Below are positions 3,646 to 43,015 of a stretch of 64,000 nucleotides of DNA, piece by piece. Where the stretch lies: the IMG/VR virus record IMGVR_UViG_3300046507_000526, positions 70,193 through 134,192 of that record; one strand, 5' to 3'. The notes beneath the pieces were generated by a model. That model saw only the letters and a program-made list of their open reading frames with translations. It was not told where the DNA came from and searched no databases. The translations under genes were made by a program, and so were the position numbers. Source of the DNA: a virus (taxonomy: Duplodnaviria; Heunggongvirae; Uroviricota; Caudoviricetes). The stretch's first letter is position 1; every line of letters starts with the position of its first letter.

Positions 3646-4602
3646 ATGAAACTTAATCAGCCTTTCCGTCGTCCCTCTCTCAACTCTGAAGAACGTGTTG
3701 CTTTCAATACACCGGAGCCGGTTAAGGCTGAAGTTTCAGAACCGGTTATTCCTCCGCTCGTTTCAAATAAACCGGAAATGCCTTCTCTGGTAAAAACTGA
3801 GACTTCTGAACCGGCACTTCCTAAATTGGAACGAGTGCAAAAGAAACAAGTTGAACTATCGCCCCCACAATCCGCAGCGGAAGTTAAGGCTACGGCAGAA
3901 CCTGAAACTTCAGGCGGGGTGCCGAAACTTGTGAAAGAGGAAAAGCCTGCGGTAGCATGGCCTTTCTCAACAGATGAACAAAAGGATTTGCAAGAAGAGC
4001 TTCAGACAGAAATGGCTAAGCCTGCAGTTCCTGAACTTCAACAGCCCGTTGCTATTCCGAAGCTTGAAATCACTAAGGGCAATGGCGAGGTTAAGAAGGT
4101 CGACATCCCTGCACTCGATGCTTACAACAAGATGGAAGTCGTTCATCTGTTGATAGGGCGTTCTTCAGAGGACGAAGAAATCGTTTTGCTCCAATCTTTT
4201 TCGGAGAGATTCGTCAGAACAAAAAACAAGGATGAATTCAACCAGAGTGTCTATGCTCGTATCAGCGCTCACTACCAAGCGATGTTCTCTACTCATCAGT
4301 ACGATTTGTATGAGCGTCGAGCCCATCACAGTATACAAGTTCAAACTGTTACTCCTCAGCTCGCCAACAAGGGAGTCGAGTGGGTTGCGGCTTTGGCTGA
4401 TGATGGGCTACCTGCTGGAACCGATACTCAAGCATACGCAAACTCAGAAGGTATAAGCACGGAGGATGCGTTGACTGAAATCAGAGAATATGGTCTTTTC
4501 CGAAACCCCGCATCATTCATCTACACCTGGGCTTTGGTGAAAGTGAAAATCGGGCACGACTTCGGTTCATATCGACTCTCTGAGTTGATGCCGACTCTGT
4601 AA
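3646..4602 (+). CDS. hypothetical protein with Pro/Glu/Lys-rich N-terminal half
   Basis: 318 aa ORF; low-complexity PEP/PAL repeats then globular C-terminus. Confidence 0.5.
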   Translation: MKLNQPFRRPSLNSEERVAFNTPEPVKAEVSEPVIPPLVSNKPEMPSLVKTETSEPALPKLERVQKKQVELSPPQSAAEVKATAEPETSGGVPKLVKEEKPAVAWPFSTDEQKDLQEELQTEMAKPAVPELQQPVAIPKLEITKGNGEVKKVDIPALDAYNKMEVVHLLIGRSSEDEEIVLLQSFSERFVRTKNKDEFNQSVYARISAHYQAMFSTHQYDLYERRAHHSIQVQTVTPQLANKGVEWVAALADDGLPAGTDTQAYANSEGISTEDALTEIREYGLFRNPASFIYTWALVKVKIGHDFGSYRLSELMPTL

Positions 4603-4605
4603 CCA

Positions 4606-4636
4606 AGGAGGGGCCATTCGGCTCCTTCTTTTTTTA
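4606..4636 (+). terminator. rho-independent terminator
   Basis: GGGGCC-ATTC-GGCTCC hairpin followed by TTCTTTTTTT. Confidence 0.6.
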
Positions 4637-4779
4637 GCCGATCAGAGAGGCTGAAGAGACCTACCTTAGGTTGGGTATCAATTAGGCATAGCAGCCTGTC
4701 CTAGGCCTTGTACGCAAGCCTCAGATACATTCGTGTCCGATCTTTGTACTTCTTTTTCGGACATCAAATGAGATGTTTT

Positions 4780-5330
4780 AAAAACTGGACAGATGGCCAT
4801 TTCAAAATCTCCTTTAAAATCAACAACTTACGACAATGTGTCCAATTTGTCCAAAATCAAAAATAAAACTGGACAGCCGCAAACCCATACTGGGCTTGGC
4901 TTTCAGCGGATTTGTCCAATTGTCCTGGTTTTTTTTCAAACCATACCTCACTTTCTAATAGAGAAATAAAAAACAAAAAAAGAAAAACTTAGGGTTCACC
5001 CTAACAGTCACAGAATCCGGGGGTCTTATATATATATAATATTTGAACTTTTTAAAAAATATATTTATATATAAGAGAGGTATTTCTCTTTTTGCAAAAA
5101 GATGTGTGTTGCTATTTATAAGTGAGGTATGGTTTGAAAAAAAACCAGGACAATTGGACAAATCGTCTGAAAGCTAAGCTGGGCCTACGTTTGCGGCTGT
5201 CCAATTTCTAAATTTAAAAAGGACGTTTTTGGACACGTCTCATAAGCTCTTGATTTTAAAGAGAAATCTCAAAATAAAACTGGACACCATTTTTGGACAC
5301 ATTCAAAGTCATCATTCCTAGGGGTTTTTG
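4780..5330. repeat. iteron-rich palindromic element, copy 1 (TGGACA/TGTCCA iterons, about 95-bp inverted repeat arms 4869-4952 and 5121-5210, AT-rich core 4953-5120)
   Basis: about 10 TGGACA-type iterons; right arm is reverse complement of left arm (about 90 percent); core TATATATATAAT...TATATATAAG; copy 2 at 63741-63990. Confidence 0.6.
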
Positions 5331-5337
5331 GTATAAG
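5329..5337 (+). promoter_or_regulatory. TGGTATAAG promoter motif
   Basis: conserved extended -10-like box. Confidence 0.4.
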
Positions 5338-5434
5338 TAAAGTATGGAGAAGAACTGTTGATTTCGCCTTCAGCAATTCCTCTCAACCTTGAATAGGGTC
5401 TACGGTTTCGTAGGGCCTTGACAAGTTGGTCTTT

Positions 5435-5472
5435 TACCGGCAGCTGATCCCCAAGTCTTCAGCCGGTTTTTT
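5435..5472 (+). terminator. terminator/attenuator-like hairpin
   Basis: CCGGCAGCTG...CAGCCGG followed by T8, directly upstream of thg1-like start. Confidence 0.4.
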
Positions 5473-5484
5473 TTGGTAAATGAA

Positions 5485-6327
5485 ATGGACGACAACGTAC
5501 AATCTATTGAACAAATCCGTCACCTTGACTTTAACGCTCTCGGTGACCAGATGAAGATGTATGAGAAGAAGTACAACAGCGAATACCTGATGCCCGGTTT
5601 GCCGATTGTGATCAGATTCGATGGCAACGCTTTTCATACCTTTACGAAGCACATGCAAAAGCCTTACGACAAAGATCTTGCTCAGACTTTCCAGTGCACG
5701 GTCGATGATCTTATCAGGGAGTTGAATCCTGATCTTGCGTATCATCAAAGTGATGAGATCAGTCTGTTCTGGTTTAACCATGACACTACCAAGCAGTTGG
5801 CATTTGATGGCAAAGTACAGAAATGGCTCAGCGTATACGCAGCCAAATGTACAGCTATCTTTAATAGCTTCCTGCAAGGGTTCATGCCTGAAAGCTATTT
5901 GATGAGACCTGTGTTTGATGCCCGAGTTTTCCAGTTCCCACGCTGGGACTTTGCATACGACTATTTCGTGTGGCGTCAATGGGATGCTAGAAAGAATAGC
6001 GTAAGCATGGCTGCACATCACTACTTTACCAACTCAGAGCTTCACGGCGTGAATACTGCCGAGAAAATTGAGATGTTGCATAAGGTAGGCGTTAATTTTG
6101 CAGAGTATCCGGAATCTTTTAGACAAGGCACGTTCACCCGTAAGGTAAAACGTCTGATGCCTATTGATGACGAAACCTGGGCTCGTATCCCCGATAAGAA
6201 CAAACCTGAAAACAGATTTGTAGAACGTAGTTTCATCGGAGTAGTTAAAGGTGTACCTAAGCTTACTTCCCTGACAGTAAGCAACGGTAGTTTTCAAATC
6301 TTTCATTCTGACTATAGCGTTGCCTAA
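5485..6327 (+). CDS. Thg1-like protein (tRNA-His guanylyltransferase family 3'-5' nucleotidyltransferase)
   Basis: IVIRFDGNAFHTFTK and AYHQSDEISLFWF match Thg1 motifs vRiDGr.FhkF and gqSDEySFvf; FVWRQWDARKNS matches WRQ.D..NN; ORF track start 5473 is TTG, first ATG 5485. Confidence 0.8.
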   Translation: MDDNVQSIEQIRHLDFNALGDQMKMYEKKYNSEYLMPGLPIVIRFDGNAFHTFTKHMQKPYDKDLAQTFQCTVDDLIRELNPDLAYHQSDEISLFWFNHDTTKQLAFDGKVQKWLSVYAAKCTAIFNSFLQGFMPESYLMRPVFDARVFQFPRWDFAYDYFVWRQWDARKNSVSMAAHHYFTNSELHGVNTAEKIEMLHKVGVNFAEYPESFRQGTFTRKVKRLMPIDDETWARIPDKNKPENRFVERSFIGVVKGVPKLTSLTVSNGSFQIFHSDYSVA

Positions 6328-7666: not shown

Positions 7667-9362
7667 GCGTATAGCACCCAAGGCTAAGAAGCCAATTGCA
7701 GAAATGCTGGAAGAGAAGATTGTCGAAAAAGCAGTAGAAGCACCTGCAGAAAAGAAAGCGCGGAAGAAGAAAGAGCCAACCGTAGTTGAAGTGCCTGAAG
7801 AAAAGAAGATCTATCGTACATACGAAGATTATCCGTATGCTGACCTGATGACTTATGCTGGTATCGATAATATCGTAACGTCGGAAGTTCTAACAGCACT
7901 GTGGCCCGACTTGGTAAAGCCGCAAGAACTGTTGATGCCACAGAAGAACGGCCAGCCCAAGAAGATCAAGGCTCCTGGAATTATCAAGTCCGTTGTCGAG
8001 ACTGAAATGCTCTGTCATGAGTTCATTATCAATCTCGAAATTAACGGAATGCTTTATGACATAGCACGTAACCGTGCAATTTCGAAGCAGATGGTTGAGG
8101 AAGTAGCAGAGTTCGAAGAGAAGATCTTCAGCGCTATTGGGAAACGAATCAATCTTGATTCCGGTACAGAAGTAGGCAAGTACCTGTATGAAGAACTAGG
8201 GCTTGAGGCTCCATTCAAGACAAAGTCTGGTGACGATGCAACTGACGGTGCGGCACTTTTGACGCTGGCGGGTTTGAATCCGTTGGCTAACCAGTACACA
8301 GCTCCGGATCCAGCCAAGCAGTTTTTGGCGGATATGGCTAAGAGAAAGGATATTAATAGTGTCCATAACACCTTCATTAAAACGTATGTTGAAGACTTTG
8401 TTCGCTCGGATGGTCGCATTCATCCTAGCTACAACATGTTTGGTACTAGCAGCTTTCGGATCACTGGGGATAGCCCAAATCTTACACAGCTACCTAGGCC
8501 TAAGCACGGGTACAACGTACGTGAATGTTATACTGTGGCTGACGGGAATGTATTTATTGCATTTGACTTTAGCTCAGCGGAAGTAAAAATCCTCGGTGCA
8601 ATCTGCCGAGATAAGAACATGCTGAAGGCGATTTCTGAAGGTCTTGATTTTCACTCGTTCTCGGCAAGTGCAATGATGGGTGTGCCCTATGAAGAGTACA
8701 TTCATATTCTTGAAGACGATTCACATCCGCTGAAGAAAGAGTACAAGCGTATGCGACAAGTTGCAAAAGTTCTGACGTTCTCAATCCTTTATGGTTCGTC
8801 AGTAAACGGTATTGCAATGCAGTTGCAGTTAGAGAAGAGCGAAGCGGAACGTCTGGTTAATATGTACTTCAATGCGTATCCTGGTGTTAAGGACTATATT
8901 GATGAGTCGCATCAGATGGCACTGTTGAACCAGAAAGTATGGACACCTTTTGGTCAGTACAAGCACGAGTATGTTGCTCAGCCTGCGTTCAAGCGTACCG
9001 CAGCATATAACGCATCACTGCGCAATGCACAGAACGTTCGTATTCAAAGTGCAACGTCTACGCTGGGTCTGGTAACGTTTGCACATCTGGATCAGGCAAT
9101 TCAGAAGATTGACCCACGCTGCAAGAGTATCTGTACCGTGTATGACTCGGTGGAGTTCGAAGTGCCGCAGGAACGTGCAGCAGAAGTGATTGAAACAGCG
9201 TTCTATTACATGAACGAATGGCCTGTCCAACATTTCGATTGGCTTGATCTCCCGATTGGTGTTGAAGGTGAAATTGGATTTAACTGGGGTCAGGTGAAAG
9301 AAGTTAAGCCTGGCATTACGCAAGAAGCGGTAAATGAGATGTTAATGAAGATGAGAGCGTAA
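7656..9362 (+). CDS. DNA polymerase I-like, C-terminal polypeptide: Exo III motif plus family A polymerase domain
   Basis: YAGIDNIVT (Exo III, Y-x3-D); motif A FDFSSAEVKILG, motif B RMRQVAKVLTFSILYG, motif C TVYDSVEFEV; ATG overlaps upstream stop by 11 nt. Confidence 0.85.
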   Translation: MAIKRIAPKAKKPIAEMLEEKIVEKAVEAPAEKKARKKKEPTVVEVPEEKKIYRTYEDYPYADLMTYAGIDNIVTSEVLTALWPDLVKPQELLMPQKNGQPKKIKAPGIIKSVVETEMLCHEFIINLEINGMLYDIARNRAISKQMVEEVAEFEEKIFSAIGKRINLDSGTEVGKYLYEELGLEAPFKTKSGDDATDGAALLTLAGLNPLANQYTAPDPAKQFLADMAKRKDINSVHNTFIKTYVEDFVRSDGRIHPSYNMFGTSSFRITGDSPNLTQLPRPKHGYNVRECYTVADGNVFIAFDFSSAEVKILGAICRDKNMLKAISEGLDFHSFSASAMMGVPYEEYIHILEDDSHPLKKEYKRMRQVAKVLTFSILYGSSVNGIAMQLQLEKSEAERLVNMYFNAYPGVKDYIDESHQMALLNQKVWTPFGQYKHEYVAQPAFKRTAAYNASLRNAQNVRIQSATSTLGLVTFAHLDQAIQKIDPRCKSICTVYDSVEFEVPQERAAEVIETAFYYMNEWPVQHFDWLDLPIGVEGEIGFNWGQVKEVKPGITQEAVNEMLMKMRA

Positions 9363-12471: not shown

Positions 12472-13773
12472 ATGGCCGTACTTACGATAGGTTCTTCGAA
12501 CCCTAAATTTTCCTGGATCATTTCCAAAAACCCTGCAACTATCCGGGAGAAAGGTGAGCCGTACAAAAAAGAGATCCGTCAAGGCAATGCATATGGCTGG
12601 TTTCTCACCAATGACCAGTCTTTTCGTCTCTGGTTTCGGGATAATCCTTTGACGTGTTCGTTTGCAGAAGGAATCAATGCGGAATTCGAGTATCTTGACC
12701 GCACTCGTTACGCTTCTCCTTACTTGCCGATTTCGTTGATCACGAACTGTCTGGCAACTGCATTCAAACAATCCCAAGAGGAAGATGAAGAAAAACCGTG
12801 GTCTGCATTTCTCACGACGACGGTAGAAATTCGAAGTGCTAGCATGCTTCGTCATCTCACAGAACACTTTAACGGGGCATTTGGATTTGACAAAGGGTAT
12901 AGCTTCACTGCTCAGAAATTAGCGGGCAACGCCTACGACGTCCATATTCAAGGCCCGAGCGTTCACAAGATGCTCAACGCTGCAATGGTTATTTTCCTGA
13001 TGTTCTGTGTTTCGACAAAAGGCATCTACATCAACCTCAAGGGGGATATCGTTGAGAAATACATTGCTGCAATTAACCGCATCAATGCTCCTTATTTTAT
13101 CCGGTATCTCTTTAAACGGAACGTGTTCTCAAATCGTGACACATTTCTTAAGAACAAATCGCTGCTTGATACGAACGAGATTTCGCTCTGGCACGGTGAC
13201 ACCCTTGCTCAGCGTAAAGAAGCTATCTTCCCCCACCTGGAAGGCGGAGCAATGCTTGTTGACATTGGGTGCGGTGAACTCAATTACACGCTCCCGCTCA
13301 GTTCGAAATATGAACAGGTCCTTGCGTTTGAAGCGGATGACGAACTCCGTGAAAACATGCTCGGAAAACTCAAAGGCCGAGAAGTCGAAAACGTTGTTCT
13401 CCGAGATGCTGCAACTCCCGAATCGATTGATGAGTGTTCCTCGCTCCTTAGCGGAGCAGACGTGCTCATCACAGAAGTTCTGGAGCACATTCCTCTTAAA
13501 GATGCAAGAGAGCTTGTTAATTCCGTTCTGAAAACTGAATTTAACAAGTTGGTTATCACGGTTCCGAACAAGGCTTTCAACGTGAACTATCTGATGGGAG
13601 AAGATGAGTTCCGTCACGATGATCACAAGTGGGAAATGACTCACGACGAATTTGAAGATTGGATTCTTCGTTCGAAATTCCCTGAATGGACTGAAGTTGA
13701 AATTAGAGGTATTGGCGATTCTGTCAACGGCACATTCACTTCCACGATGGTTGTTTTCTCCAAGAACAAATAA
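12472..13773 (+). CDS. hen1: Hen1-like RNA 3'-terminal 2'-O-methyltransferase (bacterial Hen1 architecture)
   Basis: C-terminal class I SAM MTase motifs MLVDIGCGELNY, VLAFEADDEL, DVLITEVLEHIP; about 430 aa with N-terminal non-MTase domain as in bacterial Hen1; directly upstream of pnkp. Confidence 0.7.
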   Translation: MAVLTIGSSNPKFSWIISKNPATIREKGEPYKKEIRQGNAYGWFLTNDQSFRLWFRDNPLTCSFAEGINAEFEYLDRTRYASPYLPISLITNCLATAFKQSQEEDEEKPWSAFLTTTVEIRSASMLRHLTEHFNGAFGFDKGYSFTAQKLAGNAYDVHIQGPSVHKMLNAAMVIFLMFCVSTKGIYINLKGDIVEKYIAAINRINAPYFIRYLFKRNVFSNRDTFLKNKSLLDTNEISLWHGDTLAQRKEAIFPHLEGGAMLVDIGCGELNYTLPLSSKYEQVLAFEADDELRENMLGKLKGREVENVVLRDAATPESIDECSSLLSGADVLITEVLEHIPLKDARELVNSVLKTEFNKLVITVPNKAFNVNYLMGEDEFRHDDHKWEMTHDEFEDWILRSKFPEWTEVEIRGIGDSVNGTFTSTMVVFSKNK

Positions 13774-13782
13774 GGACTTACC

Positions 13783-16203
13783 ATGAAAATTCAAACCAAG
13801 CTTCACACCGTGTTTATCCTGGTTGGCCCTTCTATGTGCGGCAAGTCGACGTTTTCCCTTGAGTTGCAGCACGCTCTAGGAGAACAGATGCGTAAAGCTG
13901 GACTGGGCGGTTCGTGTTCGATTCCCGTCATCAGTTCCGATGCGGAGCGAGAAAGTCTTTACGGCTACAAGAATCTCCATCGTTACGCACCTTTGATGAT
14001 GGAAGCCTCAGCTTCGGCCTTCGAAGTCCTTATGGCCAGGTACAAGGCAGCGATCTCGTTCCCGATCAATAGCGAATTCGTGATCATCGACACGACTGGC
14101 ATGAACGATACGTTCCGCAAGCAAATTCGTGAACTGGCCGAGGAAAAGGAATATCGTACTGAGTTGGTTACTTTCGAGTACTCCAACTATCAGTATTGGT
14201 CGGAATCCAATGCAGAAGAAAAGGTCATCGTCGAGTCGAGTGCCAAGCGATTCAAGCAGAGCGTCCTCCCGAATCTGGGGCGTAAAGATCACGACGGCTG
14301 TATCCGTGTGCGTGAACGTGACAAGAATTTCTGGCGTGACCTCGAAGTTGAGATTGAAGATCTGCAAAAGTACGCAGCTACTCAGTTGTATCTCAATAAG
14401 GACATGCAGATCAATATCATCGGAGATGTGCACGAACATGTCGAAGCGCTGGAAGAACTTCTTGTCAAACTCCCTGCTGGGAGCATCAACGTTATGGTGG
14501 GAGATTACATTGATAAGGGCAATGACACAGCAAATGCCATTGCTGCAGCTCGTAGGTTCCACGCTTCTGGTGGTATTATTGTTCACGGCAATCACGAGTC
14601 GTATGCTGTGAAACGTATCAAGGGAGAAATTAAGAACCCTGATCTGGAAATGGAAGCAAAGTACATGACTTCACTCAATGTACTGCTGAAAGATCCTGCG
14701 CTTGCAGCTGAGCTTGTAGATCTCTTCGACCTTTGTTCTGTACCTTTCCTCAAAATTCACGGTCATAACGTTCGTACCCTTTACGTTACCCATGCTCCTT
14801 GCGAGCAGAAATATCTGGGTAAGATGAGCCCTGCAGCACTTAAGGCTCAACGTAACCTGTACGGGGATCGTAAAGAAGACTACCGGAAGGCATATGACTT
14901 TATCTTTAAAGAAGCAGTTGGCAATTTCCCTTTGCATGTGTTTGGTCATGTTGCCCATAATGCTTCAAAGCTCGAATATCGGAACAAGATTTTTATCGAT
15001 ACCGGTGCTGTGTATGGCAATGCTCTTTCTGCTTTGTGCTATAAGGGAAACCGCTATTGGATCGAGTCTGTTAAGGCGACTGAAAAAGTAACGGTACATA
15101 AGGAACTTCAAAACTTCCTTACGCAACCTATTGCAGCTCCGGAAAAGCCCTTCAGCATCTACGACTATAAGTTGTCGCCTGATGATATGAAGTTCTTGAA
15201 GCGTACAATCGCAAACCGCGTTCAGTACATTTCCGGAACTATGGCACCAGCTCCGTCGACCAGCACTGAGATTGAAAGTCTGAAGGCTGGACTGGACTAT
15301 TTCCGTAACAAAGGCACGACGAAGGTAATTCTGGAACCGAAGTACATGGGTTCACGTTGCCAGATGTATCTGTTCCGTGGCCAACGCGAGAAATGCTTCC
15401 TGGTTTCCCGCAATGGTTTCAAGATTCGAATGAATGAAAAGCTTGACGCAATGCTTGACGCCGAGCTTGCGAAGTATGAAGCTTTGAGTCTTGATTTCTG
15501 GAATGAGTCAATGATTCTAGACGGCGAGCTTCTTCCTTGGACTACTCTCGGCGCTTCCTTGGTCGAAGAGCAATTCAAGGCGTATGAAGAGCTTGTACGT
15601 TACGAACTGGAAACTCTTGCAGGGGATGCGGAATTTGTGAAGCTTAACTTCAAGCAAAAGCCTGATTTATTAGCACGTCTGGCCGATCTGGCAACGTTCA
15701 AGAAAACCCTTGCAATCTACGGAGCAGAAGCCGATCCTTTCTATAAACCTTTTGCAATTCTGAAAATTGATAGCGAGGCCATGGGGAATAAATTTGAGGT
15801 TGCAGATTCGTTCGATACTCTCAACGAAGACGAATGTCGTGTCCTGCGTTTGGATAACGAATTCACTGACCAAACAGCGCAAGAATTCTTCGAAGCGTTG
15901 ACCGTAGATCGTAAAATGGAAGGCGTCGTCATTAAGCCTCTCGATGGTCCGGAAGATGTAGCACCGTACATGAAGGTTCGGAATGAGAATTATCTGACAC
16001 TTGTGTATGGCTACGACTATAAGAACCGTTACGAAGCTCTTTGCCGCCAGAAGAAGGTTGGTGGTAAACTACGTGTCTCCATTAAGGAGCATGATCTCGC
16101 AATGGCAATGCTTAATGTAGACAACGGCCCTGCCATGACTGAATTGATTGTGAAAATGATCTCACAACTCAATGAAGAAAAGGCTTTGGATCCTCGTCTG
16201 TAA
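13783..16203 (+). CDS. pnkp: bacterial-type polynucleotide kinase-phosphatase with C-terminal ligase-like adenylyltransferase domain (Pnkp)
   Basis: P-loop kinase VGPSMCGKST; calcineurin-like phosphoesterase GDVHEH...GDYIDKG...GNHES; C-terminal nucleotidyltransferase motif EPKYMGSRCQ; three-domain order matches bacterial Pnkp. Confidence 0.85.
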   Translation: MKIQTKLHTVFILVGPSMCGKSTFSLELQHALGEQMRKAGLGGSCSIPVISSDAERESLYGYKNLHRYAPLMMEASASAFEVLMARYKAAISFPINSEFVIIDTTGMNDTFRKQIRELAEEKEYRTELVTFEYSNYQYWSESNAEEKVIVESSAKRFKQSVLPNLGRKDHDGCIRVRERDKNFWRDLEVEIEDLQKYAATQLYLNKDMQINIIGDVHEHVEALEELLVKLPAGSINVMVGDYIDKGNDTANAIAAARRFHASGGIIVHGNHESYAVKRIKGEIKNPDLEMEAKYMTSLNVLLKDPALAAELVDLFDLCSVPFLKIHGHNVRTLYVTHAPCEQKYLGKMSPAALKAQRNLYGDRKEDYRKAYDFIFKEAVGNFPLHVFGHVAHNASKLEYRNKIFIDTGAVYGNALSALCYKGNRYWIESVKATEKVTVHKELQNFLTQPIAAPEKPFSIYDYKLSPDDMKFLKRTIANRVQYISGTMAPAPSTSTEIESLKAGLDYFRNKGTTKVILEPKYMGSRCQMYLFRGQREKCFLVSRNGFKIRMNEKLDAMLDAELAKYEALSLDFWNESMILDGELLPWTTLGASLVEEQFKAYEELVRYELETLAGDAEFVKLNFKQKPDLLARLADLATFKKTLAIYGAEADPFYKPFAILKIDSEAMGNKFEVADSFDTLNEDECRVLRLDNEFTDQTAQEFFEALTVDRKMEGVVIKPLDGPEDVAPYMKVRNENYLTLVYGYDYKNRYEALCRQKKVGGKLRVSIKEHDLAMAMLNVDNGPAMTELIVKMISQLNEEKALDPRL

Positions 16204-30840: not shown

Positions 30841-30916
30841 GGGAACATAGCTCAATTGGCAGAGTAGCGGTCTTCAAAACCGTTGGTTTCGGGTTCGAGT
30901 CCCGATGTTCTCACCA
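30841..30916 (+). tRNA. tRNA with anticodon UCA (UGA reader; opal-suppressor / tRNA-Trp-like), CCA encoded
   Basis: canonical 76-nt cloverleaf: acceptor GGGAACA/TGTTCTC, D-arm GCTCAATTGGCAGAGT, anticodon stem GCGGT/ACCGT, loop CTTCAAA, T-arm TCGGGTTCGAGTCCCGA; resembles tRNA-Trp with C34 to U. Confidence 0.75.
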
Positions 30917-31620: not shown

Positions 31621-31688
31621 TAAACAATAGCTCAATCGGTAGAGCACACATCCATGTGAAGCTGGGGGTTCGAGTCCCCCTTGTTTTA
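31621..31688 (+). ncRNA. short tRNA-like gene (68 nt) with truncated anticodon arm; possible tRNA pseudogene or minimal tRNA
   Basis: acceptor TAAACAA/TTGTTTT (U1-U72 mismatch), D-arm GCTCAATCGGTAGAGC, T-arm GGGGGTTCGAGTCCCCC, but only 12 nt (CACATCCATGTG) where the 17-nt anticodon arm should be. Confidence 0.35.
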
Positions 31689-38364: not shown

Positions 38365-38522
38365 AGAGTTGTATAAGAAGTAGCTTTTAATTCTGCATCT
38401 CTTTTTTGGCTGGTCAAAATGCGTCGTCGTAATACCCTCAAACTCGCAGGCTACGTAATGTCTATCGTAGTTGGACTTTCCTGCGTTCTACTAACAGCAA
38501 AGCTTGGAATAACGAGATAAAT

Positions 38523-38933
38523 ATGAATCCTGAGATCAAAGCCAAATGGGTAGCCGCTCTTCGTAGTGAAGAATACAAGCAAGGTAAGAAGGTTCTGAAT
38601 AACGGGGTTGGAAATTTCTGCTGCCTCGGCGTTCTTTGTGATTTATACGCAAAGGAAAATTCCGTGCAGTGGACGGATGTTTTAGGAGGCCACGAAGAAG
38701 AGACGCTTCAGGAATTTCTAGGAAACATAGCTGTACTTCCTGATGAGGTACAGAACTGGGCAGGTCTTTCAGGAAAAAACCCGTACGTTAAACATAATCG
38801 GAATCTGAATGAAGTGAACCAAGAGATCTATAAATTTGGACCTCTTGAGAAAGAGGAGAACCTGGTCACTCTTAACGACAGTGGGAAGTTCACCTTTAAC
38901 GATATTGCAGATCTTATCGAGGCACAATTATGA
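38523..38933 (+). CDS. paralog 1 of 4 (KWVAALRS...CCLGVLC family, unknown function)
   Basis: shares N-terminal motif and C-terminal F.F..IAD.IE with next three ORFs. Confidence 0.55.
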   Translation: MNPEIKAKWVAALRSEEYKQGKKVLNNGVGNFCCLGVLCDLYAKENSVQWTDVLGGHEEETLQEFLGNIAVLPDEVQNWAGLSGKNPYVKHNRNLNEVNQEIYKFGPLEKEENLVTLNDSGKFTFNDIADLIEAQL

Positions 38934-39349
38934 ACACCGAAATCAAAGCCAAATGGGTAGCTGCTCTTCGTAGTGGCAAGTATCGTCAGGCAAAGCACGT
39001 TCTCAAAGGTGACGACGGAATGTGTTGCCTGGGTGTGCTCTGTGACTTGTACATTCAGGAAACTGAGGGCAAGGAATGGAAGGAAAGACCTATTGACAAT
39101 ATAGATCCTACGACCTTCCAAAAGTATAAGGCTATCGGTACTTTCGGAGGAAGCGATGTAGTTCCTCCTGTGGAAGTGGTGAAATGGGCGAATCTTCCTA
39201 AAGAAAATCCCTACACGGGTATCACAACGTGGGGATCGGTTCTTTTTACGGCAAATCAAGATTTCGAGCAAAGCTATAGCCTCGCTGATCTCAATGATAA
39301 TGGTCTGACTTTCTCTCAGATCGCCGACGTTATTGAGTTTGTACTGTGA
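38930..39349 (+). CDS. paralog 2 of 4
   Basis: MNTEIKAKWVAALRSGKYRQ...CCLGVLCDLY; ATGA overlap. Confidence 0.55.
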   Translation: MNTEIKAKWVAALRSGKYRQAKHVLKGDDGMCCLGVLCDLYIQETEGKEWKERPIDNIDPTTFQKYKAIGTFGGSDVVPPVEVVKWANLPKENPYTGITTWGSVLFTANQDFEQSYSLADLNDNGLTFSQIADVIEFVL

Positions 39350-39702
39350 ATCCAGAAGTTAAAACCAAGTGGCTCGCTGCTCTTCGAAGCGGTGAGTTTG
39401 AGCAGGGTGCAGTGAGGCTCAAAACAGAAGTAAGGGACGGGACATCGAAGTTTTGTTGTCTAGGTGTTCTGTGTGAATTGCATGACAAAGAACATGGTTG
39501 CGAACAATCGTACGAAAGCATTTCAGGAGAATTGCCAGATCACGTAAGAGACTGGGCAGGACTTTCCGAAAACAATCCGTATATGAATCAACCTGTTTCG
39601 TTTGCTTATCCGAAAGAATGGAGAACCCATATTTCTGTTCTTAACGACATCAAGCAATTTTCTTTCAACCAACTAGCTGATCTTATTGAAGCACAACTGT
39701 AA
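39346..39702 (+). CDS. paralog 3 of 4
   Basis: MNPEVKTKWLAALRSGEFEQ...CCLGVLCELH. Confidence 0.55.
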   Translation: MNPEVKTKWLAALRSGEFEQGAVRLKTEVRDGTSKFCCLGVLCELHDKEHGCEQSYESISGELPDHVRDWAGLSENNPYMNQPVSFAYPKEWRTHISVLNDIKQFSFNQLADLIEAQL

Positions 39703-40070
39703 TGAAAAAGCGAATCAAAAACAAGTGGATCAAAGCGCTGCGTAGCGGTGATTATAAACAAACTGAGGGTGCTTTGCGGGCAGGCGATGCATTCTGCTGC
39801 CTCGGAGTTCTTTGTAATATCCATGCTCAGGAACATCCTGAAATTGCTGCGAAGGAAAAGAGTCCTCGATATTACATGGGCGCTCATGGATTGCTTCCCC
39901 CGGCAGTAGTTGAATGGGCGGGGCTTACAAATGTAGCCACCGAAGAGAATGGAGATCCTACGGACATCAAAGTAACCTACCGCGACAAAGAAACTACTCT
40001 CTCAAATCTTAATGACTCTGAGGAACTCAGTTTCAAGAAGATTGCAAAAGTTATTGAGCGCTGTTTGTAG
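39702..40070 (+). CDS. paralog 4 of 4
   Basis: MKKRIKNKWIKALRSGDYKQ...CCLGVLCNIH. Confidence 0.55.
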   Translation: MKKRIKNKWIKALRSGDYKQTEGALRAGDAFCCLGVLCNIHAQEHPEIAAKEKSPRYYMGAHGLLPPAVVEWAGLTNVATEENGDPTDIKVTYRDKETTLSNLNDSEELSFKKIAKVIERCL

Positions 40071-42840: not shown

Positions 42841-43015
42841 GCAACAAAACGACTGGGCTCACGAGGCCTAGTCTGTTTTGGAAAGGTCTTGAAGGCCTTT
42901 TCAAAGCAGTGTATAATTGCTTCTCTTTGGGGTTAAAGCTTTAAGGTGAAGCAACGGACTTTTAATCCGTAGAATAGGGGTCAGTACCCTGTAGCCCTAC
43001 CAATAATTTCTAATA

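Follow-up and report, generated by a model that had tools for sequence, protein, structure and literature searches.

A long iteron-bearing palindrome, present in three copies per genome, is a probable replication origin of a family of large phages

We analysed 64,000 nucleotides (the window) of the Caudoviricetes record IMGVR_UViG_3300046507_000526, positions 70,193 to 134,192, and describe a palindromic element at 4781-5303 of this window that is probably a phage replication origin and would be one of three such origins in each genome of a family of phages of about 130-200 kb. We infer the origin function from the anatomy of the element, its copy number, its conserved positions, the purifying selection acting on it, the low stability of its duplex and the modelled fold of a candidate initiator protein. 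An origin is favoured because the core of the element is the least stable duplex of the window, because its iterons stand in mirror image about one helical turn apart at a site of fixed synteny, and because the putative initiator belongs to the Rep/Cch-like class, which is associated with the same layout. A preliminary description of this DNA had already preferred an origin over other explanations, and the melting region, the mirrored iterons, the selection and synteny, and a candidate initiator gene 2.3 kb upstream favour that preference. The window comes from a large phage genome with genes coding on the + strand and at least 20 tRNAs, and its PolA is 48% identical to that of Salmonella phage Arash and 44% identical to that of Vibrio phage D69.

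The anatomy of the first copy was drawn from an alignment of 18 copies (14 distinct) taken from the window and its close relatives. It comprises the following features, in window coordinates.

4781-5303: the whole element, copy 1, an imperfect palindrome of about 520 bp defined by inverted pairs and made up of iteron fields, boxes and an asymmetric core
4866-4961 and 5112-5207: inverted arms of 96 nt each, 85% complementary, with 150 nt between them
4812-4833/5240-5261 and 4844-4856/5291-5303: outer inverted pairs that stretch the symmetry to about 4781-5303
4781-4925: left iteron field, with TGGACA-type sites at 4786(+), 4839(-), 4848(-), 4870(+) and 4913(-) and an extra variant, GTCCT, at 4921(-)
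5145-5303: right iteron field, with TGGACA-type sites at 5155(+), 5198(-), 5230(+), 5281(+) and 5294(+) and a variant, AGGACA, at 5147(+)
4818-4830, + strand: IHF-consensus site of the left arm, AATCAACAACTTA
5243-5255, - strand: IHF-consensus site of the right arm, AATCAAGAGCTTA, mirroring 4818-4830
4939-4953, - strand: left 15-bp box, AACCATACCTCACTT (reverse complement AAGTGAGGTATGGTT)
5120-5134, + strand: right 15-bp box, AAGTGAGGTATGGTT, the inverted partner of the left box
4954-5119, + strand: asymmetric core with an A-tract, a TTAGGGTTCACCCTAA hairpin, TAGGGTT, GGGGGT, two (TA)n runs and T5A6
5025-5084: proposed DNA-unwinding element, the 40-150-bp duplex with the lowest stability in the 64 kb
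5043-5075, + strand: sigma70-like promoter candidate, read by eye, with TTGAAC, a 17-nt spacer, TATATA and an overlapping TATAAG

The palindrome and the iteron cluster are real and far above chance. Ten exact TGGACA/TGTCCA sites fall within 4786-5299, as had been proposed from the first reading (about ten over some 550 bp); they account for 10 of the 44 such words of the whole window, and in 100 first-order Markov simulations the 550-bp-window maximum was 4, with a mean of 2.6. In the rest of the window, outside the elements, the motif is at background level. Folded as single-stranded DNA, copy 1 gave a z of -15. The length of about 95 bp first claimed for the inverted arms agrees with our measurement, whereas their complementarity had been put somewhat too high, at about 90%. 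The strings quoted for the arms, GGACAGCCGCAAAC and GTCCAATTGTCCTGGTTTTTTTTCAAACC, are carried by both of them, and the AT-rich runs TATATATATAAT and TATATATAAG were found in the core.

The iterons share the consensus AAAAYTGGACA and number 5-7 per arm across the copies. Neighbouring iterons are 9-10 bp apart, about one helical turn; the right field is the mirror image of the left one, and the mirror-symmetric positions hold in the 14 distinct copies. Towards the centre each arm ends in a T-run/A-run mini-palindrome followed by the 15-bp box, and the boxes, separated by 166 nt, are invariant in all close relatives. The IHF pattern WATCAANNNNTTR matched 11 sites in the window, with 3.85 expected, and 3 of the 11 lie inside elements; copy 1 of two relatives (L004 and L005) has two IHF-consensus sites per arm. 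Just left of the element, at 4729-4766, we observed a short inverted pair of the variant words GTGTCCGA ... TCGGACAT, and the relative L003 has a similar outlying pair, AGTCCGAAG ... CAGACAG; the pair in the window may be an outlying, degenerate iteron pair. The boxes were also considered as promoters of the T7/T3 type (CCTCACT) and rejected as such, the word being confined to the elements apart from one weak match at 5335.

Since outward readings of both arms are equal and start with the invariant AAGTGAGGTATGG, the element could in principle hold two divergent genes for structured non-coding RNAs, one per arm, but we regard this as extremely unlikely. Rfam searches of the window, at gathering as well as permissive thresholds, returned just tRNAs and sub-threshold chance matches, RNAalifold on 19 arms recovered just the invariant TGGACA/TGTCCA pairing and no supported covariation, and no conserved promoter lies upstream of the boxes.

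The preliminary description did not include a second copy of the element, which lies in direct orientation 58,882 bp downstream of copy 1 and is 91% identical to it over 300 nt. On its upstream side this copy adjoins a Ro60-like gene and an 81-codon open reading frame (ORF).

About 63646-64000+: copy 2, left arm and core, with the right arm past the window end
63659(+), 63669(-), 63720(-), 63752(+) and 63795(-): iterons of copy 2
63700-63712: IHF-like site of copy 2
63821-63835: box of copy 2

A blastn search with the element against 50,697 phage records gave no match. An exact 22-nt word of the core was found at 16 loci in IMG/VR, and the element occurs on three further contigs as follows.

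3300046507_000371 (181,435 bp): copies at 172,732(-), 113,833(-) and 67,618(+)
3300046474_000237 (117,159 bp): copies at 8,763(+), 67,553(+) and 115,856(-)
3300046524_000229 (107,134 bp): copies at 146(+), 49,658(-) and 107,040(-)

Copies 1 and 2 are separated by 58.8-58.9 kb on two of the contigs, in agreement with the 58,882 bp of the window, and by 57.4 kb on the remaining one. A further 46-50 kb beyond copy 2 comes copy 3, inverted and between divergently oriented genes. Its arm-specific differences travel with its core, and hence the whole unit was turned. This bears on the idea of an inverton, in which the arms would serve as recombination substrates and the core would flip to redirect a promoter. 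A promoter-bearing asymmetric core does lie between inverted repeats, and both core orientations exist (copy 3 against copies 1 and 2, and the relative L027 against the window). Nevertheless, in copy 3 the arms and not just the segment between the repeats are turned, each copy keeps one orientation across four genomes, and no recombinase gene was seen beside the element among the genes examined, so that we give an inverton hardly any credence.

The element is under purifying selection at fixed syntenic positions. It is kept downstream of homologues of a 318-amino-acid protein (encoded in the window at 3646-4602) whose identity is as low as 38-50%. Between the window and the relatives L003, L004 and L005, the core is 82-86% identical from box to box, compared with 66-75% for the flanking genes and 64-77% for the outer arms; constraint is therefore stronger on the non-coding core than on the adjacent coding DNA. 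These findings bear on a further alternative, a selfish palindromic repeat, akin to a miniature inverted-repeat transposable element, which spread within the genome and is passively carried. Its long inverted arms resemble terminal inverted repeats, though here the whole element is a palindrome and not a body with short terminal repeats, there are several copies per genome, one of them opposite with arms following the core, and contigs often break within the element. Several contigs start or stop inside a copy, which is expected of a repeated palindrome. On the other hand, the three places of the copies are unchanged in genomes as diverged as the protein identities above indicate, the conservation of the core exceeds that of coding DNA and no transposase gene lies nearby. 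The two-box pattern had 0 matches in 185,579 bacterial and archaeal genomes and matched only four loci in metagenomes, all from the same phage group. The preliminary description had kept a mobile element as an alternative, which many copies in unrelated genomes with target-site duplications would favour; the extra copies instead occur only in related phages, at conserved places, and neither target-site duplications nor flanking direct repeats were seen at their edges. A mobile repeat is thus very unlikely.

The core sequences of copies 1 and 2 are nearly identical, and the core of copy 1 is the stability minimum of the 64 kb at all window sizes of 40-150 bp, about 5 standard deviations from the mean. 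The TTGAAC-17-TATATA/TATAAG candidate within it is kept in the close group and in L027. A consensus promoter scan, which demands T at position 6 of the -10 hexamer, reported none in the element region. Two other readings were rejected: the TTAGGGTTCACCCTAA hairpin as a terminator, as its 5' half is invariant and its 3' half varies without compensation, and the invariant GAGGTATG as a ribosome-binding site with start codon, as the downstream frames (2 to 14 codons) are not conserved. A site of telomere resolution or a hairpin end would have a perfect dyad, whereas the 150-166 nt of the core are asymmetric with a defined orientation.

The transcription signals around the element are the following.

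4605-4630, + strand: intrinsic terminator that closes the upstream operon and bounds the gene-free gap on the left
5328-5337, + strand: TTGGTATAAG phage promoter that restarts transcription rightward of the element
3226, 5328, 12390, 22328, 30629, 38355, 50938 and 58966: examples of TTGGTATAAG sites

The gap between the terminator and a Thg1-like gene had been estimated at about 900 bp without genes, and it indeed spans about 870 bp, from the stop codon at 4602 to 5473. The word TTGGTATAAG, which resembles an extended -10 element, recurs without mismatch at 14 sites of the window, each of them on the + strand and upstream of genes; a sigma70-family factor encoded upstream of the primase gene in relatives may read this class of promoters. 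Just before the Thg1-like gene, at 5328-5470, we observed a TTGGTATAAGTAAAGTATGG promoter followed by an untranslated RNA of about 128 nt, which has three hairpins, ends in an intrinsic terminator and gave a fold z of -2.7. It is kept in L003, L004 and L005, has no Rfam match and may act as a regulatory leader or as a small RNA.

The strongest competitor of an origin, possible but in our view unlikely, is a transcription control hub, in which the core holds one or more early promoters and the iterons act as operators, through which a phage regulator or the HU-like protein would turn the promoter on or off, each copy standing at the head of one of three transcription units. The conserved promoter-like words of the core are compatible with it, as is the confinement of the minus-strand TATAAGA words of the window to the two cores. 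Furthermore, each copy has a terminator or gene end on one side and a promoter on the other, and the promoter-like site of copy 3 points at a gene block without a TTGGTATAAG promoter of its own. However, the core of L027 is inverted relative to the downstream genes, distant relatives retain the palindrome and the (TA)n centre without the -35/-10 words, and the genes downstream are supplied with TTGGTATAAG promoters of their own. In addition, 12-14 exactly mirror-symmetric sites are unusual for an operator, and elsewhere in the genome the motif is not above background.

Copy 1 lies within the replication module. Upstream of it are the primase gene, a gene for an HU/IHF-like protein and three ORFs of unknown function; downstream follow genes for the Thg1-like protein (5473-6327), a uracil-DNA glycosylase (UDG)-exonuclease, PolA and RNase H.

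2-2488, + strand: 3' part of the primase/self-loading helicase gene, with a Toprim domain; the full protein, P0001, has 977 amino acids
2935-3210, + strand: gene for an HU/IHF-like DNA-binding protein of 91 amino acids (phrog_379, E = 2.4e-21)

The syntenic genes of relatives also encode a Bac_DNA_binding domain, and the HU/IHF-like protein is a candidate architectural factor for the IHF-consensus sites. As candidate initiator we consider P0001, for which an AlphaFold2 model was built on 64 homologues with a mean predicted local distance difference test score (pLDDT) of 87. Foldseek searches of the PDB matched its N-terminal half to DnaG primases of the zinc ribbon plus Toprim type and its C-terminal half, over about 600 aligned columns, to self-loading helicases.

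SCCmec Cch, 5dgk: E = 1.5e-12
Rep of the Staphylococcus aureus pathogenicity island (SaPI) SaPIbov1, 8tch: E = 1.6e-11, TM-score 0.63 on the target
Further matches of the C-terminal half: PriRep1/PriRep5 (7pds, 7ola), NrS-1 and poxvirus D5/E5

At the end of the model, residues of about 890-977 form a helix-helix-strand-strand unit that we read as winged-helix-like and as a candidate DNA-binding domain. The putative recognition helix of this unit appears to covary with the repeat word of the respective element, which is suggestive.

SKNAV(I/L/M)SA: TGGACA, in five lineages
TKHALLSS: TGACA, in L028
SNRAIREA: TGGCCA, in L029
SKGAVRDA: TGYWACAT, in D69

SaPI Rep proteins are self-loading helicases with a C-terminal winged helix that reads penta- or hexanucleotide iterons, 6-12 of which form the origin just downstream of rep; one half of the iterons lies on either side of an AT-rich centre, the halves pointing opposite ways, and a hexamer is thought to load on each of the two sides (PMC9371898). 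We found the same arrangement of iterons in the phage element, with 5-6 TGGACA-type sites per arm at mirror positions around an AT-rich centre, and P0001 would match, at the level of its modelled fold, a Rep-type helicase with a C-terminal winged helix. Also in favour of such an origin, and at odds with a DnaA-dependent one, no DnaA boxes (TTATNCACA, at most 1 mismatch) were found in 4781-5303 or 63646-64000, and their total in the window is at or below chance.

Over 200 homologues of the primase were found, many of them on contigs of 100-200 kb. In five of these relatives, whose primases are 43-62% identical to that of the window, a palindrome with a (TA)n centre lies between the primase/HU cluster and the UDG-exonuclease/PolA genes.

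L027: arms of 188 nt with TGGACA iterons and IHF-like sites; the same core as in the window, inverted
L028: arms of 117 nt, 99% complementary, with TGACA-type repeats
L030 and L032: TGGACA iterons
L029: a smaller palindrome with TGGCCA repeats

The cultured Vibrio phage D69 has its own version of the element, with TGYWACAT iterons, 650 bp downstream of the primase gene. Its complete genome (OZ195729.1, 186,708 bp) contains exactly three copies, at about 67.5, 125.2 and 185.4 kb, with intervals of 57.7, 60.2 and 68.8 kb.

About 67,350-67,690: D69 copy L039
About 125,040-125,420: D69 copy L037
About 185,250-185,590: D69 copy L040

The three share a near-identical asymmetric core and have more diverged arms, one copy being inverted, and they rank 2nd to 6th among the least stable stretches of 60-100 bp in the 186.7 kb. 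Several tiny annotated ORFs of D69 (e.g. VPHD69_0230, 0231, 0322 and 0323) overlap or adjoin the elements and are probably not genes.

The number and places of the copies also bear on whether the element might be a packaging site, or another site of DNA processing such as recombination or nuclease entry. In phage P1 pac, hexamers flank an IHF site around the cut and are regulated by methylation, and the element likewise has hexamer repeats on either side of a central region, together with IHF-consensus sites. Nevertheless, P1 pac is a single copy beside the packaging genes, and the phage element occurs three times per genome, in no case with a terminase gene. In D69 the terminase is encoded at 1-1506, the nearest copy is about 1.1 kb off across the record junction and other genes lie between; no terminase turned up in those large ORFs of the window that we scanned; and copies 1 and 2 fall into the regions for replication and nucleotide metabolism. 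The preliminary description had named a packaging or nuclease site as an alternative; the three copies away from terminase weaken that alternative, which we consider quite unlikely.

Several observations weigh against a replication origin. The element is not immediately downstream of the initiator gene, as in the SaPIs, but 2.3 kb off with four small ORFs between; in D69 the two are 0.65 kb apart, and in other relatives 1.7-3.1 kb. At the syntenic site of L031, L033, L034, L035 and phage Arash there is no gap and no element was found, despite the same primase. GC skew is not shifted at the elements, in the window as well as in D69, and tracks gene orientation. The winged-helix call comes from the inspected secondary structure of the model and from near-full-length Foldseek alignments without a match at the domain level, and the covariation of helix and iteron comprises four classes and is confounded by phylogeny. 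Moreover, a simple model of iterons plus unwinding element does not require the conserved asymmetric core, the invariant boxes or the fixed orientation of the core.

In the mode of action that we propose for such an origin, the C-terminal domain of the primase/self-loading helicase would bind the AAAAYTGGACA iterons on both arms and the HU/IHF-like protein of the phage would bend the arms at the IHF-consensus sites. Two facing rings would then assemble and could melt the (TA)n/T5A6 centre in vivo. The fused DnaG-type primase would make the first primers, to be extended by the neighbouring PolA, its exonuclease and RNase H. The promoter-like site in the core may contribute transcriptional activation and origin polarity, and three roughly even origins would cut the replication time of a genome of about 180 kb. 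The complete proposal, that large phages including D69 have three long palindromic origins at roughly even spacing, with symmetric loading of a DnaG-primase-MCM/Rep-like helicase in the manner of archaeal and eukaryotic-virus origins and an asymmetric core, bearing a promoter-like site, that fixes polarity, is put forward tentatively, and we hold it for somewhat more doubtful than the origin function itself.

No description of the element was found in the literature searched, and its closest functional match is the Rep/ori system of the SaPIs. Both have penta- or hexanucleotide iterons, about six per side, opposed around an AT-rich centre (PMC9371898). Both also have the origin downstream of the initiator-helicase gene, a primase-linked helicase and no DnaA boxes. 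Unlike the SaPI origin, the phage element is a long palindrome of 520 bp with arms of 96-190 nt; its asymmetric core is ultra-conserved and its two 15-bp boxes are invariant. It is located 2.3 kb away from the gene and is present in three copies per genome, and the primase is of the DnaG type in a large replicon of the lytic phage type. The long palindrome, the conserved asymmetric core and the three copies set the element apart from SaPI-type origins.

More distant likenesses were seen in other systems. Archaeal origins, e.g. those of Sulfolobus, which has three with inverted recognition boxes beside an A/T-rich unwinding element, resemble the phage element in the inverted boxes around the A/T-rich sequence and in the presence of several origins per chromosome, and in both the archaeal system and our proposal an MCM-type ring helicase is symmetrically loaded. 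They differ in having an initiator, Orc1/Cdc6, that is separate from the helicase, and there is no sequence relation. The origins oriL and oriS of herpes simplex virus are likewise palindromes with an A/T centre and inverted boxes for a virus-encoded origin-binding helicase, and the virus also has three origins per genome, one of them between replication genes; in contrast to the phage element, its helicase UL9 is of superfamily (SF) 2, its palindromes measure 45-144 bp and it is a eukaryotic virus. In simian virus 40 (SV40) and other polyomaviruses and in phage P4, short words (GAGGC in the SV40 core origin and TGTTCACC in P4 ori/crr) are read by an origin-binding domain fused to an SF3 helicase, which in P4 is also fused to a primase, and a double hexamer forms at a symmetric site, as we propose here. 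SV40 and P4 each have one origin, without a long palindrome or a site of the IHF type, and the repeat clusters of P4 are direct and 4.5 kb apart.

Several other features of the window were noted. The 318-amino-acid protein that adjoins the element is disordered and rich in proline in its N-terminal half, and its C-terminal domain (about 160-305) was modelled with confidence. It has no sequence match in Pfam, PHROG or the PDB, the best fold match to its model has E = 0.57, a tblastn search against the 50,697 phage records gave no match, and its homologues are confined to the close phage group. Genes for RNA repair and quality control lie at 5473-6327, 12472-16203 and 61700-63322 and encode a Thg1-like guanylyltransferase, Hen1 plus Pnkp, and a Ro60 (TROVE plus vWA) homologue. 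Relatives of the Thg1-like protein were not found in viral contigs. Y RNAs are the usual partners of Ro60 proteins, and Rfam detected none in the window. About 22 tRNA genes were located at 22379-43812, among them one with anticodon TCA at 30841-30916 that ARAGORN calls tRNA-SeC, and two tRNAs (31621-31688 and 42929-42999) were detected by Rfam alone. A small array of what look like duplicated genes, four paralogous units of about 410 nt in tandem (repeat families D2 and D3), occupies 38519-39836.

To our knowledge, replication origins have been determined experimentally for only a handful of phages and for almost none of the large uncultured ones. If the element is an origin, its signature of mirrored iterons, (TA)n centre, long palindrome and three copies would locate origins across the family of about 130-200 kb, and the candidate initiator would be a primase fused to a Rep/Cch-like self-loading helicase. 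The breaks in the assemblies of these phages at element sites would also be explained. The cultured Vibrio phage D69 would be a directly testable member of the family, and a multi-origin phage chromosome with symmetric helicase loading in the archaeal style would be a useful small model.

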